Below, in pieces: positions 1 through 33,544 of a stretch of DNA of 40,346 bases. The position numbers were made by a program, and so were the translations under genes. Position 1 is the first letter of the stretch; the number at the start of each line of letters is the position of its first letter. The stretch is from a virus, in the UHGV virus genome UHGV-0260710. One strand, given 5' to 3'. The notes beneath the pieces are model-generated. The model ran no database searches. It had not been told where the DNA came from and saw only the letters and a list, made by a program, of their open reading frames with translations.

Positions 1-422
1 CGCTCACCAGTTACCGGACTTGTAGTCCAATCGTCATGGAATTTAGCACCTAGCAACTTCAAGAATTTAATGTGAGACTTATTGCCTGACCACACGTAGT
101 TCCAGATGGTCCCGTATTGGTCTAACATTAAGTCCCTGTACTCAGAGATACGCTTTATGAACTCTCGCTTCTCTTTAGGTCTCAGCTTATAGACCAGACC
201 GGAAGTCAAGAACCATACGTTATCCCCTTGGTTTCCACCATAGGCAAACACTTCGCCTACACCGTTAGTTAAAACCACAGATGACGGAGATAGGTGCTTA
301 AGCAGTCTTTCAGAGAGACCAACGGTTGACCCGTAGTTTGCTTTGCACTCATTAACATCATCTGCTGAAAGATGCCACAGAAAGTATTGGACATCTGGTT
401 CCGTAGCCTTGCGAATATACAT
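1..422 (-). CDS. gp13: Internal virion protein A (gp13-like), 3' end runs off window start; ATG at 420-422 with AAGGAG RBS
   Basis: Hand translation from 422 gives MYIRKATEPDVQYFLWHLSADDVNECKANYG... with no stop for 140 codons; lies after gp12 and before gp14 (at the window end) as in T7. Confidence 0.6.
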   Translation of the reverse strand, partial: MYIRKATEPDVQYFLWHLSADDVNECKANYGSTVGLSERLLKHLSPSSVVLTNGVGEVFAYGGNQGDNVWFLTSGLVYKLRPKEKREFIKRISEYRDLMLDQYGTIWNYVWSGNKSHIKFLKLLGAKFHDDWTTSPVTGE

Positions 423-451
423 AAAGTCTCCTTATAACCTTAAGGGCCTAT

Positions 452-474
452 AGTCCCTATAGTGATAGTTAAGG
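452..474 (-). promoter_or_regulatory. Phage RNAP promoter (phi13-like), CCTTAACTATCACTATAGGGACT
   Basis: Family motif between gp12 stop and gp13 start; flanked by a perfect 10-bp inverted repeat GGGCCTATAG (444-453) / CTATAGGCCC (480-489). Confidence 0.7.
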
Positions 475-498
475 TAAATCTATAGGCCCTTCAATAAG

Positions 499-2856
499 TT
501 AGACGGAACGAGCTTTCTTAGCGTATGACGCCTCCCAGCCACAGCCAACGATGGACACTGGGGTAGGATAATCTGACTCTAAGGTTAGACTCGTGGTTAA
601 TGCGTTACCATTCATAGCGAAGCGATACTGACCATCCCCAATGTTGGTAGTCCCGATGGTTTGCTGACCAAGGGTGTACCCATTAAAGGTGTTCACGAAC
701 TCCCGCTCACCGTTTCTGACAATGAGTCTAAGAGCGCCAGTGTCCTTGTAGTTGACCCAAGCCCGACGAAGTTGTAGGCGTCCAGTGTCTTCAGACTGAG
801 TGCCACTCTCGTCTTCAATCTTAATAAGGAACCGTGAGAACTTGTAGGACATCAGATAAGACCGTCCGATGAACACTGTACGTCCCGACCAATCGCCATT
901 GAGCATAGCCACAGTTGAGATGTCGGTCAGTTCACCAAGGTCCACATAGGCACCTTGACTGTCAATCAGATAGTACCGACCGGGAGACGGAGCGTTTCCA
1001 CCATAAGCAGAACCAATGTCGACCGTAGTCTTATAGGTGTCAGCGTTATATGAGCCAATTGGGATTACCATAGACACCTTGGAGTCAACGTGGAGTCTAT
1101 ACGGCTCTAATGGAAAGTCAGTTGCCTCCTTGATGAACTTAAGGTGCTCAAGGTCCACGCCGCCTTGGTGCTGACGAACAATGAACATGGTAGAGCCAAT
1201 CGACGCAGACGCCAGAATCTTATCAGATTTAGGGAACTCCCAGTGCGACCAAGAGGCTTGAAGCTGTACGCCGTCCTTAAACAAGAACTTGTAGATGTAG
1301 ATTCGGTTGTATGCACCTGTAGAGTTGACGCAGATGTAGTTCTCAGTCCCTGTACCTTGAATGTCAAACACCCCGTTAGGGATATAGGACAGTACGTGGC
1401 CAGTGGTATCATCGGCATCCTTCACGTCAGACACATCTGCTACAGCGAAGTAGCGCTTAATGCTGGTGAATGACCCACGAGGAGCTGAGAAGAAGACTGA
1501 GCGTCCTACAGCGAACGGTCTGGCATTATCGCCTAAGGCAAACTCTGAGCCTACATCAAGCTGGATAGACTTCGAGGTAAGGACCCCTGAGCTTGTCATC
1601 ACGAACTGCACCTCATCTGACCAAAGTAGTAGCTGCTCACTAAACGGAACGGCATACTTAAGGATTGAGATTCTAGGGTGACTTACAGCTACGTCAATAG
1701 GATCATCATCACTCAGTGTAGCCACACTCTTAGGGAAGAACGCAAAGTAGCTGGCTGAACGGCTCATGATTACGTTCTCTCCTGACAAGAACCCAAGCCT
1801 GTTCCTGTAGAAGAACACATCGTTAATCGTAGCATCCACGAAGCTAGGCATAGGGTTTGTGTCATCATTACCAGCACCACGCTTAGACCAGTCCAGAGTC
1901 TTGAGCTCAAAGGAGCCGTCAGATTGTCTCACCAGAGCATGAGGCATTGTGGTGTTATCGAACCCAGTGACCACTCCCGGCTCTACCGTCTCCTTCCACG
2001 TCTTAGTGTTGGAGTCATACATCACGTAATATTCATCGGCGCTACTGTTGGTCTCACCTTGAATCTTAATGATGTACCCATTTGGAGCCGCAAGAGGCAA
2101 CTTAGAGATTGTTTGCACCGTGTCGAGTACTGGGCTGATTAACTGGTTAGCGTAGCCATCCTCCGTCTCCACTGAGTTAATGTCAGTCCCTGAAGGGGCA
2201 GTGATTAACAGGAAGCCAGACCCAAGGTCGAACGTGAAGGTAGGGTAAGCAGCAACAAGAAGGTCTCTCAGAGCTGCACCGATAGCCTGAGCATCAACCT
2301 TAGGAGGGTCATTCTCGGCATCATTACCTGCTGGCAACTTATGCGAAACCTTAACGCCTCCGTTGATTCCTACCTTAAGGGTGCGACCATACTGTCCACC
2401 GCGCAGGTTAATTAAAGCACGAGCTTTACGATTATAACCAGAGTGTGACTTCTCGCTCCCACCTTTAACAATAACCTTACGGTTCACGATGAACGTATAG
2501 TCTGCAACGGTAACGACACGGATGTCATCTCGCGGGTTGGAAGACTTAACGTAATCTACCGCACCGGACACTGAGTATTGATTACCACTCAAGTCAACTA
2601 CCTGAATGTTGGACCCGTTGAACACGATGTAATACTGCTCCTGCTCATCACGGTTAATCAGGTGGAACTTAGGGTTGATCCCAACGTCGATGTTAAGACG
2701 TCTCTTGAAGACTGTAGGTGGGCGCTTCTGGAGGCCATCACTCTCGGATGACCAGCAGTTAACCTGTGCCTCGCCTTGGTCTGAGAACCTCAGTATATCA
2801 GGCTGCTGGCTAATGCCACCTTTAAGGTTCTTGATTGATTGAGTAATTAGTGGCAT
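499..2856 (-). CDS. gp12: Tail tubular protein B (gp12)
   Basis: 785-aa ORF; size and position match T7 gp12 (794 aa); follows gp11. Confidence 0.9.
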   Translation of the reverse strand: MPLITQSIKNLKGGISQQPDILRFSDQGEAQVNCWSSESDGLQKRPPTVFKRRLNIDVGINPKFHLINRDEQEQYYIVFNGSNIQVVDLSGNQYSVSGAVDYVKSSNPRDDIRVVTVADYTFIVNRKVIVKGGSEKSHSGYNRKARALINLRGGQYGRTLKVGINGGVKVSHKLPAGNDAENDPPKVDAQAIGAALRDLLVAAYPTFTFDLGSGFLLITAPSGTDINSVETEDGYANQLISPVLDTVQTISKLPLAAPNGYIIKIQGETNSSADEYYVMYDSNTKTWKETVEPGVVTGFDNTTMPHALVRQSDGSFELKTLDWSKRGAGNDDTNPMPSFVDATINDVFFYRNRLGFLSGENVIMSRSASYFAFFPKSVATLSDDDPIDVAVSHPRISILKYAVPFSEQLLLWSDEVQFVMTSSGVLTSKSIQLDVGSEFALGDNARPFAVGRSVFFSAPRGSFTSIKRYFAVADVSDVKDADDTTGHVLSYIPNGVFDIQGTGTENYICVNSTGAYNRIYIYKFLFKDGVQLQASWSHWEFPKSDKILASASIGSTMFIVRQHQGGVDLEHLKFIKEATDFPLEPYRLHVDSKVSMVIPIGSYNADTYKTTVDIGSAYGGNAPSPGRYYLIDSQGAYVDLGELTDISTVAMLNGDWSGRTVFIGRSYLMSYKFSRFLIKIEDESGTQSEDTGRLQLRRAWVNYKDTGALRLIVRNGEREFVNTFNGYTLGQQTIGTTNIGDGQYRFAMNGNALTTSLTLESDYPTPVSIVGCGWEASYAKKARSV

Positions 2857-8765: not shown

Positions 8766-8826
8766 CTTGAATCTCCTCTTTAAGTTAAGACTAAAGTCTA
8801 TCTTATAGTCATATCTTAGGTCCTAA

Positions 8827-8849
8827 AGTCCCTATAGTGATAGTTTAGT
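8827..8849 (-). promoter_or_regulatory. Phage RNAP promoter (phi6.5-like), AAACTATCACTATAGGGACTTT
   Basis: Consensus motif in intergenic region. Confidence 0.7.
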
Positions 8850-8901
8850 GTTTCACCTATGGATGACTGTTGGATTGATAGGATATGACTATCGGTTAGA
8901 C

Positions 8902-8994
8902 TCAGTGTTTAGGACGGTTGTTCGACCCGAACCACTTATACATGCAGTAAAGGGCCAGAAGTCCGGCCCAGTAAATTACATGGATGGTGTCCAT
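8902..8994 (-). CDS. Small hydrophobic peptide (30 aa, MDTIHVIYWAGLLALYCMYKWFGSNNRPKH), gene 6.3-position
   Basis: Strong RBS (AAGGAGGT) 5 nt upstream of ATG; overlaps exonuclease 3' end; single predicted TM segment; too short for the ORF table. Confidence 0.35.
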   Translation of the reverse strand: MDTIHVIYWAGLLALYCMYKWFGSNNRPKH

Positions 8995-13318: not shown

Positions 13319-15356
<2,038 letters not shown>

Positions 15357-15406
15357 TGGTCACTCCTTAATCATAAATGCGAACAAAGGGACAGGACTCA
15401 CGGTCC

Positions 15407-15429
15407 CATCCCTAAGGTGATAGTTTAGG
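15407..15429 (-). promoter_or_regulatory. Variant phage promoter (TAAACTATCACCTTAGGGATGG; two mismatches at -4/-3)
   Basis: Conserved upstream half of the promoter family; upstream of the HNH 3.8-like gene. Confidence 0.45.
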
Positions 15430-17055: not shown

Positions 17056-17753
17056 TAGAAGTCGTAATCGCCACCAGAGCCAGAGTCGTCACCACCTTCG
17101 GAACCATCGTCACCGAAGTCATCAGACCCGAAGTCACCATCGGTTGACGCTTTGTAGCCAGTACCAAGGTCTTCATCATCACCCCAGCCACCATCGCCAC
17201 CAGCACCATCACCTTTCCATTCTTTCAGTTCTACCAGAAGGCAGGACTCAAGCTGGAGCTTAACGCTTGCACCAGTCGCAGCGTTCCACTTGAACGGCAG
17301 GACTTTGAACTTGACCTTCAGCTTAGACCCAGCGCCAATATTCGGGACGTCACGGATGAGTTTAGCATCGGTGTCGTAGAACCGTAATACGATAGGCTCG
17401 GACTTGCCGTCTTTCAGGTAAGACGCAAAGCATTTGAACTTCAGGGTAACAGTACCGTCACCATTCTCAATCCACGGCATATCGCCTTCACGAGGCTCGA
17501 TAGGCTTCTTGCCACGCTGAACCTGAGGTGGGTTCTTCTCGTGGTCTGCGAGTGCTTTCGCATACGCATCGTCGTGAATCTTCTGCAAGACATCAATCAT
17601 CTTACGGACCTTCGGGTCGCTCAGGTCGAACGTCAGGTTAACCTTATGCTCACCACGCTCGTTAAACTTGGTGTCTGCTTTGTTCAGCCATGCGTAGGGT
17701 TCAACGATACCAGCTACCGGAGTGGTGAAAGTCTTCAGTTGCTCTTTAGCCAT
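17055..17753 (-). CDS. gp2.5: Single-stranded DNA-binding protein (gp2.5)
   Basis: 232 aa, same length as T7 gp2.5; acidic C-terminal tail ending DF; shared blocks (EPYA, NPP.V.RGKKP..P.EGDMP, NGDGT.T.KFKC.AS, GSKLKVK, W....GASVKLQLES..LVEL). Confidence 0.9.
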   Translation of the reverse strand: MAKEQLKTFTTPVAGIVEPYAWLNKADTKFNERGEHKVNLTFDLSDPKVRKMIDVLQKIHDDAYAKALADHEKNPPQVQRGKKPIEPREGDMPWIENGDGTVTLKFKCFASYLKDGKSEPIVLRFYDTDAKLIRDVPNIGAGSKLKVKFKVLPFKWNAATGASVKLQLESCLLVELKEWKGDGAGGDGGWGDDEDLGTGYKASTDGDFGSDDFGDDGSEGGDDSGSGGDYDF

Positions 17754-20623: not shown

Positions 20624-20693
20624 GGTGTAGCTCCTGGTTGAGTGAGTTAGGGTTAATCATGAAGGCCACGACTTTGAGTCATGACCTTGAGTC

Positions 20694-20716
20694 TAATCCT
20701 ATAGTGATAGTTTAGG
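20694..20716 (-). promoter_or_regulatory. Phage RNAP promoter (TAAACTATCACTATAGGATTAG)
   Basis: Family motif upstream of gene 1.1, as T7 phi1.1A/B. Confidence 0.7.
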
Positions 20717-25197: not shown

Positions 25198-25709
25198 CAC
25201 TCGCAGTCATCCTCAGCAGACGCAGGGTCGAACACTACGTTATCGTTGATGTCCTCGACCTTCAGGTGGCGACCTATCGCATAGTGATCTTTGGCACATG
25301 CAGTAGCGACATCAAGTGATACAGCTTGCTCAACGAATAGGCCTGTTTTAGCGTCTACTACCCAGTATTCTCCCTCCTCGTAGCAGCGCTCTTCAGGCTC
25401 GAACCAGACCACATCAGAGCTATTAGACACATCGTTATACAGTGCCTCATAAATGCGAGCTTGTAGGATGCGCGTTACGTCCTTGGTATCAGGCATCAGC
25501 CCAGAGTCTTCGAACTCATGGTCAATACCATCAGCAGCCATCACCGTGAAAATCTCGTGGTAATAGTGCGGAACCATATTGTCTACGACTTCATGTAGCG
25601 CATCGTAATAATCATCGCCTTCAGCTATTTCGTCGTACTGAATGCGCTCGTTAAATGCTTCAACGGTTGCAGCCAGCAGCTCATAGTATGCGTTAGCGTT
25701 ACGTTCCAT
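25197..25709 (-). CDS. ocr: Ocr-like anti-restriction protein (gene 0.3) with C-terminal extension
   Basis: 170 aa; core [36 protein letters not shown] matches T7 Ocr (117 aa); about 55 extra C-terminal residues. Confidence 0.85.
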
Positions 25710-26103: not shown

Positions 26104-26224
26104 TAGGTAATTTGAAATAATATTGATTGAGCTATCGTCGGCCCCATGGTGTAAGAGGATATAGTCTTTGACTAACATGTCTTAGACTTTAAGTCTATAT
26201 CCTTGTGTCTATTAACCGTTGGTC

Positions 26225-26480
26225 TCTGACTGTAGGTGTTGGTGTCTTATGGTTGAGACTGTAGGTTGTTAGACTGTAGGTTGTTAGAACTGTGGTTGTG
26301 ACTTATGGTTAGTGAGACTGTAGGCTGTAGGCTGATGGTTGTGACTTAGGGTCTGATACAGATAGAGACTCAGAGGCAGACCCATAGTCCCAACCTATCG
26401 TCCTTCCCTAAGCCATAGCCACAACCTATCGTTGACCTAACGTCTTGACCATCGGTCCAACCTTATGATAGACTGGGGGT
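26225..26480. repeat. Arrays of short degenerate repeats characteristic of T7-group genome ends
   Basis: 26225-26355 reiterates (G)ACTGTAGG(T/C)TGT / CTTATGG / CTTAGGG units (CCTACAG-type on minus strand); 26380-26475 carries CCATAG / CCTATCG / CCTAAG-type units in the opposite orientation; non-coding. Confidence 0.6.
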
Positions 26481-27117
26481 AGGGCCTTTGGTCTGGACTG
26501 AAAGAGGGCCTATGGGGAGACTTGAGGTTCTTGAACTGTGAGATGTGGTCTCAAACTTTTGGTCCAAAACTCATCGAAGACTGTAGGACACAGCCACTGT
26601 AGGTCAAGGACCGTAGGTCAGGCGACACTAGGATAGACCAATAAGTAGGATGACCCTAAGTGAGCTTCTCTTAAGGTGTTACCTAAAGTCCTTGACTACA
26701 GTAGCTAAGGTCAGTAGAGTAGCGTCAGCTATGAACTGACCTTAGGTCTTCCGCTCATGAATCGTTACCATGATTGCATTAATTGCACTGAGAGACCAGA
26801 GAGCATACGAGAGTCTCGACCCACCCGACCCACTGACTTCCAGCAGTAACGCCAGAAGCAAGTAGAACAGCAGCAAGAAACCTGTATGTAGCTCGATTGG
26901 TCGCCAGAGCTTTAAGTACAGCTTTGGTCTTTGCCATATGCTACATACCTCCTGTATCTATGGTCGGTGACTATCTGTATTGGAGGGATTATGATTAATA
27001 TCACCCTCCTTCCATCGGTGCAAGCCTTAGGTAAGAACTCGGAGTCTGCCTCCTAAGGTCTTGCATAAAGTCTGCATATGTATATTCACTACAGTAATAC
27101 TATAAGTAACCGGGGGT

Positions 27118-30973: not shown

Positions 30974-33475
30974 TTAAGAGTTTAAAATAGAAGAATATTT
31001 AGTAACAACATTACCAGATACAGGTGTCGAATCTATAGCAGGTCTTGCTGTTGCCCTGATATTTAGCCCAATAACCCCTGAATATGCTACTGACTGCGTT
31101 CCCGCATAACGGTAACATGCAAGAGTTCCTCCGGACTTATGAGTCCACTCAACGTTTCCATTTGCTTGAAACAGAAAGATATTAGCAGATGTTGTAGTTG
31201 TCATGTCTCCTGTGGAAACTACATTTACTGGCTCAGTGGTGGCAACTTTGATCAAGTGATACCCGGCAGGGCTTGTTACACCTCCACTCAACGTCAGATT
31301 TACATTCGTTTTACGCAATGCAATCAAACTACCATAAGCATTGCACACAATACCTCCTAAGCCACGAATTGTGGCGGATGGTAACTCTGTATCTTCCGTT
31401 AAATTTATACTTCCTGCGTTGGTATAAACGTCGTTTATTTCAAGCATTCTGCAAATTTTGGCAGCATGTTTCAAAGATTTTAGACCACGCGCTCCATTGA
31501 AACCCCAATTTTCATCGTTACCGTTAACTGGGTCGATGTATAACGTTGAAGGTGAAACGCCTGTAACTTCATTAACTAAATCCCATTTCCCAAGTTTTCC
31601 GTACTGGAACTGGCCATTGTTAGGATTTCGTATGTTGACTACAGCTCCAGAGTTTATGCCGTCAAGGAACCTGTAACCGTTGAACATCATGTAACCGTGA
31701 ATATCTACAACACTGCGACCCTTAACGCAGTTCTTGACGTAGACCACTGAACTGTTTGCTATACTTCCGTCTTGAATGAAAAGACCATTTAGACGGATGT
31801 CAGCGTCTGAGTTGATAATATAGAAACAATGTTTCGCCTTACCACCCGTGGCTTCCATGTGACAACCGTCAACCTTAAGCCCACCGTTACTGTTGGCATC
31901 CCCTTGGTTAACATACATGAATGAGCAGGTTTCTGTTACACAATACCTGAACTGCACAGAACTGCGTCCGTACTGTGTAATTGCGACATCGCCGGTTTCG
32001 TCAAAATCTTCCGGTTTAAAAATTACCTGTTCTGAATAAGTTGAATCCTGTCCAAGTCGAGCAATGTAAGCGTTTTTCACCTCAGAGCCGCCGTTTTGCT
32101 CGTAGAAAACAGCACCTTGAGTCTTGTATAGAATCTTAGGTGTTGTGTGAACACTGCCCCAAGCAATACTGTGAAGCATACCAACCTTTGGAATTCTGGC
32201 GGTTGATGCTGTGCTTCCTGGTGTGTTCTCACCAATGCTTAGATTGCTAGTTGTGCATCCTGCGGCACCTAACCAACGAAGCCCTAACAATGTTCCTGGC
32301 TTTGTGATAATAGACAGGTTTTCAATATCGATATGGCGAGCGCCTGTTCTTACTTCACCACTATCAATTTGTGAGCCTGTTGGCAAAAACATTGGGTCAG
32401 AGTTTAATGACCATGTTGACCCAGATTTAAGATAGACATACGTACTAACAGCAGCCATGTTACCTTCACCAGAAGGCGGGTTGAAGTAAAAACCTTGCTG
32501 TACGATTCGGCGGAAATAAGAGTAACCGGGCTGGACAATCTGCACGCCGGGCGGGATAAAGATTGTCTCTGTGTGCATGTACAGGCCGCGCAAAACAACA
32601 CGCTTTGCTACTACATCCAAGTGTGGGTTAAGTTCTGTTGCTGTGTCTGTAAATGAAATCGGCATGTCGTTGATGTATTTAAACATAGCCTTTAATGCCT
32701 GTGTATCGTCAGAAATCCCATCACCAATAGCTCCGAATTGCTCAGGGGTTACATCATTTAATACATCTGCTAATTTACCCGATGGATTAATTCCGATTAA
32801 TTCAGCCCCGTCATTATTCATTAGGCTTCCTCTAAGTGATGCATCACCAACACTAATCCACGCACCAAGACCAACACCACCAGCAGTTTCAGGAGTTGAA
32901 CCCTCTGGAACGTTCTTTGGAAGCGTACCATCCCAGCGGTAATACTCACCATCCTCTTCCCATAGCAGGACCTCGTTCCATGTTGTAACGTTGAAGCCTT
33001 TCTCGAAGGAGCGACGGGTAATATAGCCAACTAGACCAGCTGCCTTGATACGCTCAGCGATTCGGCGTGCTTCGTCCTCGCTATCCTTAGCGTTGCCAGC
33101 AGAGCTACCAGCAGCATCGGCATATTCCTTCGCTAAGTCAACAGTTTGGTCTCGACCTTCTTCTGCAATATGGATAGCCTGAAGCTCTGCATTGGTCAGG
33201 TCACTAGCTGTCAACACTGAACCATTCCTGAAGTCTACCACTAAGTCAGTTCCAGTCTGACGGTGAATACGAACGATGTCGAAACCTGATTGGTCAACCA
33301 ACATCTCAATAATCGTTGGATTAAGGAATCGGTAATCTCGACCGACTTCCAGTACACGGTTCAGGGTAGGGTTAGAGCTATTCACCAGCGTAACAACAAC
33401 AAACGTTCTGGCTAGGTAGTCGAACTCAATCCTGTACTGAGTGTTTCCTGAAGGGAATTGTGTAATCGTGGACAT
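30974..33475 (-). CDS. gp17: Tail fibre / tail spike (gp17): T7-like N-terminal adaptor plus C-terminal pectate-lyase-like (beta-helix) depolymerase-type domain
   Basis: 833 aa; first ~150 aa align to the T7 gp17 N-terminus (EFDYLAR.FVVVTL, DYRF, DGS.L.A.DL..A..Q..H.AEE.RD.T.D); rest unrelated to T7, contains [19 protein letters not shown], typical of pectate-lyase-3 tailspikes; 3' half visibly AT-rich. Confidence 0.85.
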
Positions 33476-33521
33476 TATGCCTCCTTTGTGATTTAAACGG
33501 AGACCTATGGTAGCGCCTCCC

Positions 33522-33544
33522 GTTTCCTATAGTGATAGTTTAGT
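33522..33544 (-). promoter_or_regulatory. Phage RNAP promoter (phi17-like), TAAACTATCACTATAGGAAACG
   Basis: Family motif overlapping the gp16 3' end, upstream of the tail fibre gene as in T7. Confidence 0.7.

Follow-up and report, generated by a model that had tools for sequence, protein, structure and literature searches.

A hairpin around the phi13 promoter as a probable Kayfunavirus counterpart of the T7-group RNase III site R13

Introduction

In phages of the T7 group, the interval between gene 12 and gene 13 holds the promoter phi13 and, overlapping it, the RNase III site R13. In the T3 record (NC_003298), a stem_loop at 25443-25480 is annotated as 'RNase III recognition site R13' and overlaps the 'T3 promoter phi13' at 25457-25479, and in that of phiYeO3-12 (NC_001271) a stem_loop at 26209-26246, arranged as in T3, is given as a 'putative RNase III site R13'. 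For T7 itself, the literature, following Dunn and Studier 1983, calls R13 a weak site of RNase cleavage (PMC5592923; also PMC6938266); it is missing as a feature from the T7 records NC_001604, V01146 and LR745710. In all three phages the hairpin forms in read-through RNA only, with a 5' arm about 7-10 nt past the gene 12 stop codon and a stem of 12-15 bp. In T7, T3 and most other relatives, the promoter itself (about -8 to +7) serves as the 3' arm, with a loop of 7-17 nt. In the T3 record, about 17 consecutive G residues stand between R13/phi13 and gene 13 (485-515 of our entry L066, about 25491-25511); this run is absent from phiYeO3-12 and may be a homopolymer peculiarity of the T3 record.

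T3 R6.5 is annotated as a 72-nt stem_loop (17135-17206) that fully encloses the promoter phi6.5 at 17160-17182. T7 R1.1 and the minimal substrate uR1.1 are built from an upper and a lower stem with an asymmetric internal loop between them; they are cut once, on the 3' side, and a protective 3' hairpin remains (PMC1540722). More generally, an internal loop allows E. coli RNase III one cut only, so that protective 3' hairpins are left, and its substrates typically comprise two helical turns, a 34-nt hairpin being minimal (PMC1540722).

Here we describe a hairpin at the R13 position of a K1F-like phage genome, hereafter the window, by which we mean the whole stretch of DNA analysed (40,346 bases). 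The hairpin is very probably a local member of this known class, ordinary in its phage group, with a small local twist in the way it is built around the promoter.

A perfect inverted repeat encloses phi13

The window is a genome of the genus Kayfunavirus (K1F-like, T7 group, Studiervirinae) with its genes on the minus strand, and more than 180 Kayfunavirus genomes align to its first 3 kb at 90-97% identity. Gene 12 is followed there by gene 13, which codes for an internal virion protein (K1F gene 13.0) and continues past the window start (Table 1). The core of the K1F-type promoter, AACTATCACTATAGGGA, is matched perfectly at 454-470 (minus strand); the window has 11 such sites in all, where 0.07 would be expected, and in Citrobacter phage CR44b a promoter is annotated at the same place as phi13 of the window. 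Some relatives (PRF-SP5, IMM-002, Ro45lw, Kc166A and others) carry 10-11 additional nucleotides, ATACTTTAAGA, after the hairpin and before the gene 13 ribosome-binding site, inserted between window positions 434 and 433 (columns 82-92 of alignment A1); the window and K1F are without it.

Table 1. Positions of the features discussed, in window coordinates
Feature	Positions	Strand	Remarks
Gene 12 (tail tubular protein B)	499..2856	-	From the list of open reading frames and the annotation of relatives
Gene 12 stop codon UAA	499-501	-	
Lower stem, 5' half UAACU	497..501	-	Takes in the gene 12 stop UAA; in the minimum-free-energy (MFE) and centroid folds
Hairpin 5' arm AAGGGCCUAUAG	480..491	-	Promoter positions -34 to -23; begins 7 nt past the gene 12 stop
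Apical loop, 26 nt	454..479	-	Whole promoter, -22 to +4
K1F-type phage RNA polymerase promoter, phi13 position	452..474	-	-17 to +6; +1 is the G at 457
Hairpin 3' arm CUAUAGGCCCUU	442..453	-	phi13 transcript positions +5 to +16
Lower stem, 3' half GGUUA	435..439	-	Lies immediately before the Shine-Dalgarno of gene 13
Gene 13 ribosome-binding site AAGGAG and ATG	420..433	-	AAGGAG 428-433; ATG 420-422
phi6.5-position 11-bp stem	AUAGUCAUAUC 8882-8892 / GAUAUGACUAU 8805-8815	-	
phi6.5-position 7-bp lower stem	GAGUCUA 8897-8903 / UAGACUU 8794-8800	-	

The original prediction described a perfect 10-bp inverted repeat flanking a phi13-like promoter. Both of its arms, GGGCCTATAG (444-453) and CTATAGGCCC (480-489), are in place in the interval from the gene 12 stop codon to the gene 13 ATG, with a perfect K1F-type core between them; the length, in contrast, was set too short, the perfect repeat being one of 12 bp, AAGGGCCTATAG (442-453) and CTATAGGCCCTT (480-491), with 26 nt between the arms. 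It is the sole perfect inverted repeat of at least 12 bp with a loop of at most 60 nt in the 40,346-base window. Repeats of this length were expected at a mean of 0.12 per window, and at least one occurred in 7% of the simulations (first-order Markov). A length of 10 bp would not in itself be notable, since simulated windows contain such repeats at a mean of 2.8; for a 12-bp repeat at the R13 position, however, we rejected a chance origin. The only other perfect short-loop repeat of at least 11 bp in the window is CTAAGGTCAGT at 26705-26715 with its complement at 26735-26745, around a 19-nt loop.

The 3' arm is a tandem near-copy of promoter positions -5 to +5 (CTATAGGGAC), set 9 nt downstream: CTATAGGCCC stands directly after CTATAGGGA, and 8 of the 10 positions are equal. 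A second functional promoter in either arm was rejected, as the CTATAGG part is all that matches and the specificity region is absent. The flanks that form the hairpin arms are absent at the other 10 promoters of the window, as is the downstream 3'-arm sequence.

In duplex DNA the arms are symmetric about the promoter, which would suit a DNA-level element, whether a protein-binding palindrome or cruciform modulating phi13 or a transcription terminator. We regard such an element as extremely improbable. The other 10 promoters do without these arms, a 26-nt spacer disfavours cruciform extrusion, and in relatives the 5' arm pairs with the transcribed start of the promoter (see below), which fits a constraint acting on RNA. 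A search of positions 300-700 gave no terminator-like site and no sigma-70-like promoter, and the stem is followed by AAGGUUAUAAGG, with no U-run; an intrinsic or T7 class I terminator and a sigma-70 promoter were rejected on these grounds.

Read-through transcripts are predicted to fold into a hairpin

Both arms are present in read-through transcripts only, the gene 12 message being the upstream RNA whose read-through supplies the 5' arm. RNA initiated at phi13 has the 3' arm alone and therefore cannot form the hairpin. A 96-nt minus-strand RNA is predicted to fold with the 12-bp stem at -27.8 kcal/mol (z = -2.75), as good a fold being reached by 1 of 200 shuffles, and within a read-through RNA of 301 nt, pairing probabilities are at least 0.99 for the ten inner pairs and 0.66-0.88 for the two outer A-U pairs. 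The hairpin with a 26-nt loop that had been proposed for read-through transcripts is thus the dominant predicted fold of both RNAs.

Beneath the 12-bp upper stem, the fold continues with a 5 x 2-nt internal loop and then a 5-bp lower stem, UAACU/GGUUA; typical RNase III substrates are longer. The succession of upper stem, internal loop and lower stem is also that of T7 R1.1 and uR1.1, whereas the apical loop of R1.1 is small and its proximal and distal boxes are defined. T3 R6.5 is likewise an inverted repeat (of 10 bp) around a complete late promoter, with an internal loop and a lower stem, as at window positions 442-491, but lies in the gene 6.3/gene 6.5 region and has unrelated arm sequences. 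An Rfam scan of the whole window gave no hits at the gathering score.

The window has hairpins near other promoters as well. Its promoter at the phi6.5 position (8829-8845, minus strand) is also enclosed by a hairpin, 8794-8903, with the design of T3 R6.5. Stable hairpins are also found directly downstream of three other phage promoters, at 15339-15425, 20626-20712 and 33454-33540 (minus strand; for example AAGGUCAUGACUC...GUCGUGGCCUU after the promoter at 20696); all three probably represent additional sites of the RNase III type, comparable to R1.1 and R4.7.

The outermost helix in the MFE fold of the window, UUCC/GGAG, involves a UUCC at the end of gene 12, and could suggest that the hairpin controls gene 13 translation in read-through RNA by sequestering the ribosome-binding site. 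However, relatives have other gene 12 codons at this UUCC (…CGAGTC, …GCTATC) and the pairing is therefore not conserved; UUCC/GGAG also is absent from the consensus fold. Shine-Dalgarno sequestration was rejected for its non-conserved partner sequence, and we consider it very improbable.

The arm core is fixed within the genus

In order to compare the interval within Kayfunavirus, we assembled 22 distinct versions of it from IMG/VR contigs and GenBank phages. The 9-bp core of the stem, GGCCUAUAG/CUAUAGGCC, is unchanged throughout this set except for one A-to-G change that gives a G.U pair: the 5' arm core GGCCUAUAG is unchanged in 21 of the 22 sequences, with 8 of its 9 columns invariant, and the 3' arm core in all 22. 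These 9 bp are the universal part of the repeat, which is 12 bp long in the window as against 9 bp in most of the genus. The third pair of the window, G-C between 444 and 489, is broken in 16 of the 22 sequences and the next, an A-U pair, in 6. The columns beside the 5' arm core vary, as does the loop from -22 to -9 (3 of 14 columns invariant), and the stretch from -8 to +16 is wholly invariant in the genus. The lower stem is pairable in 96% of the cells of the genus alignment, with no covariation. No stem-loop is annotated at the hairpin in the Kayfunavirus records inspected.

The pattern of constraint, in which the arm core is fixed while its flanks and the loop vary, is informative. On the other hand, no double change was found among the 22 sequences in the main stem, in its 3-bp extension or in the lower stem; since no pair has changed on both sides, the genus alignment is neutral on pairing as such. 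Conservation in the genus could reflect a constraint on sequence instead of pairing, and the invariance of the 3' arm could come in part from selection on the initially transcribed sequence of phi13.

The loop at phi13 contains at least three promoter-specificity types between identical arms, AACTATCACTATAGGGA, TTACACCCTCACTATAGGGA and TTTAACACTCACTATAGGGA; the loop variants, compared with window positions 458-479, were seen in the relatives L024, L032, L014, L023 and L029. The presence of several specificity regions at phi13 therefore points to switches of polymerase/promoter specificity within Kayfunavirus.

The invariance from -8 to +16, the zero compensatory changes in the genus and the tandem placement of CTATAGGCCC after CTATAGGGA (8 of 10 positions as in -5 to +5) could also be accounted for if the repeat had no function and were simply left over from a small duplication in tandem, or from recombination, at the palindromic CTATAG core, its arms being conserved only through slow evolution next to the promoter. 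We find this quite improbable, because the 5' arm lies outside the promoter, at -34 to -23, and stays invariant between variable columns on either side, and because the same pairing is upheld by different sequences across the subfamily. Moreover, the sole 12-bp perfect repeat of the window lies exactly at the R13 position.

Hairpins at the same position occur across the subfamily

The original prediction had pointed to related genomes as the place to look for the same arrangement, and it does recur there: besides the 9-bp arm core kept in the 22 Kayfunavirus sequences, almost every relative in the subfamily has a hairpin running from about 7-10 nt past the gene 12 stop codon to the phi13 promoter. 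The T7 interval folds with a stem of 15 bp, in which positions -8 to +7 of promoter phi13 serve as the 3' arm. Hairpins of 12-18 bp are also found in YpP-R, T3, phiYeO3-12, KpV767, KKP3708, phiEap-1, Erwinia L1 and the IMG/VR contigs L057 and L018; they have the same design as in T7 with different sequences, and a 5' arm about 7-10 nt past the gene 12 stop.

In a wider sample, 80 viral contigs gave 60 distinct post-stop segments, 49 of them with a recognisable promoter core. All but two of these (47/49) have at least 8 predicted pairs bridging the upstream sequence to the promoter or beyond (median z -3.4). We also aligned by hand two 12-nt arms, taken at fixed offsets, from nine lineages (alignment A2). 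In this alignment, which leans towards structure because it was hand-built from arms at fixed offsets, 90.7% of the cells are paired, against 28-54% in slid registers; 5 of the 12 pairs change on both sides with pairing kept, and the covariation score was reached by none of 500 shuffles. A hairpin over phi13 at the R13 position would thus be a subfamily-wide trait that co-varies with the promoter sequence.

In all of the non-Kayfunavirus relatives examined the 5' arm pairs with the promoter itself; in the window, its partner is instead the stretch from +5 to +16. One relative, L057/L089, has a Kayfunavirus-type gene 13 start, but its 5' arm, GUCCCCUAUGG, pairs with the start of its own promoter, CUAUAGGGGAC. 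This pairing agrees with the K1F arrangement having arisen by a 9-nt duplication.

Discussion

In our view, the repeat is probably the Kayfunavirus counterpart of the T7-group site R13, that is, a hairpin most likely cut by host RNase III. Like R13 of T3, phiYeO3-12 and T7, it lies in the gene 12-gene 13 interval, overlaps phi13, begins in the same short distance after the gene 12 stop codon and can form in read-through RNA only. It differs from R13 of T7 and T3 in that its 3' arm is a near-copy of promoter sequence and the whole promoter occupies the 26-nt loop. Cleavage at R13 of T7 and T3 is documented or annotated, whereas that of the Kayfunavirus hairpin is predicted.

Late transcripts from upstream phage promoters that read through genes 11-12 would carry both arms and fold into the hairpin. 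To judge from the position and design shared with R13 of T3, phiYeO3-12 and T7 and with T3 R6.5, host RNase III would then most likely cut it; the cut would probably fall near window positions 436-441, where the upper stem has its base on the 3' side. The gene 11-12 message would thereby end in a protective 3' hairpin with a presumed stabilising role, and the message from gene 13 onward would be freed with a 5' end close to that of phi13-initiated RNA.

The suggestion in the original prediction of a possible RNA-processing site at this place thus gains from the R13 position, from the annotation in T3 and phiYeO3-12 and from the compensatory changes across genera, but not from the genus itself, where covariation is lacking; cleavage is what these comparisons suggest. 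In the literature on K1F-like phages we found no mapping of RNA ends, and the statement that T7 R13 is a weak site was the only one on R13.

That weakness, together with a continuous helix of 12 bp and a 26-nt loop, below typical RNase III substrates (PMC1540722), leaves some room for a hairpin that is selected in read-through RNA without being an RNase III substrate. Such a structural block, with its very stable stem, might for example obstruct 3'-5' exonucleases or RNase E scanning, or insulate gene 13 translation from upstream translation. We consider this unlikely, given that the curators of T3 and phiYeO3-12 annotate the positional homologue as an RNase III site and that the upper stem, internal loop and lower stem follow the design of T3 R6.5.

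Taking the repeat as a probable R13 counterpart, we infer that a 9-nt tandem duplication of CTATAGGnn made the 3' arm and shifted the pairing partner of the 5' arm to just downstream of the promoter start. With CTATAGGCCC placed in tandem after CTATAGGGA, the promoter comes to sit in the loop. The remnant of a duplicated promoter that the original prediction offered as an alternative is plausible for the 3' arm alone, with its match at 8 of 10 positions, but leaves the retention of a complementary 5' arm unexplained.

More tentatively, the duplication (CTATAGGGA|CTATAGGCC) might have uncoupled the processing stem from the promoter; the arms would then have stayed constant as a frame, with the promoter as a cassette free to change in the loop between them. 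We would give this proposal a rather low probability; it would explain how the specificity types AACTATCAC (K1F-type), CACCCTCAC and TAACACTCAC come to stand between identical arms. If true, promoter and polymerase specificity could be swapped in Kayfunavirus without disturbing RNA processing, in contrast to T7 and T3, where the 5' arm must co-evolve with the promoter. The R13 class itself is already known, and only the displacement of the 3' arm from the promoter, with the promoter-in-loop cassette that results, is mildly new.

For the K1F-like phages, which are used therapeutically and supply orthogonal RNA polymerases, the hairpin adds a probable RNA-processing site where none is annotated in the records inspected. 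Where phi13 of a K1F-like genome is moved or replaced in engineering, both arms should be retained; otherwise one would have to accept that the gene 11-12 message and that from gene 13 onward are processed differently.
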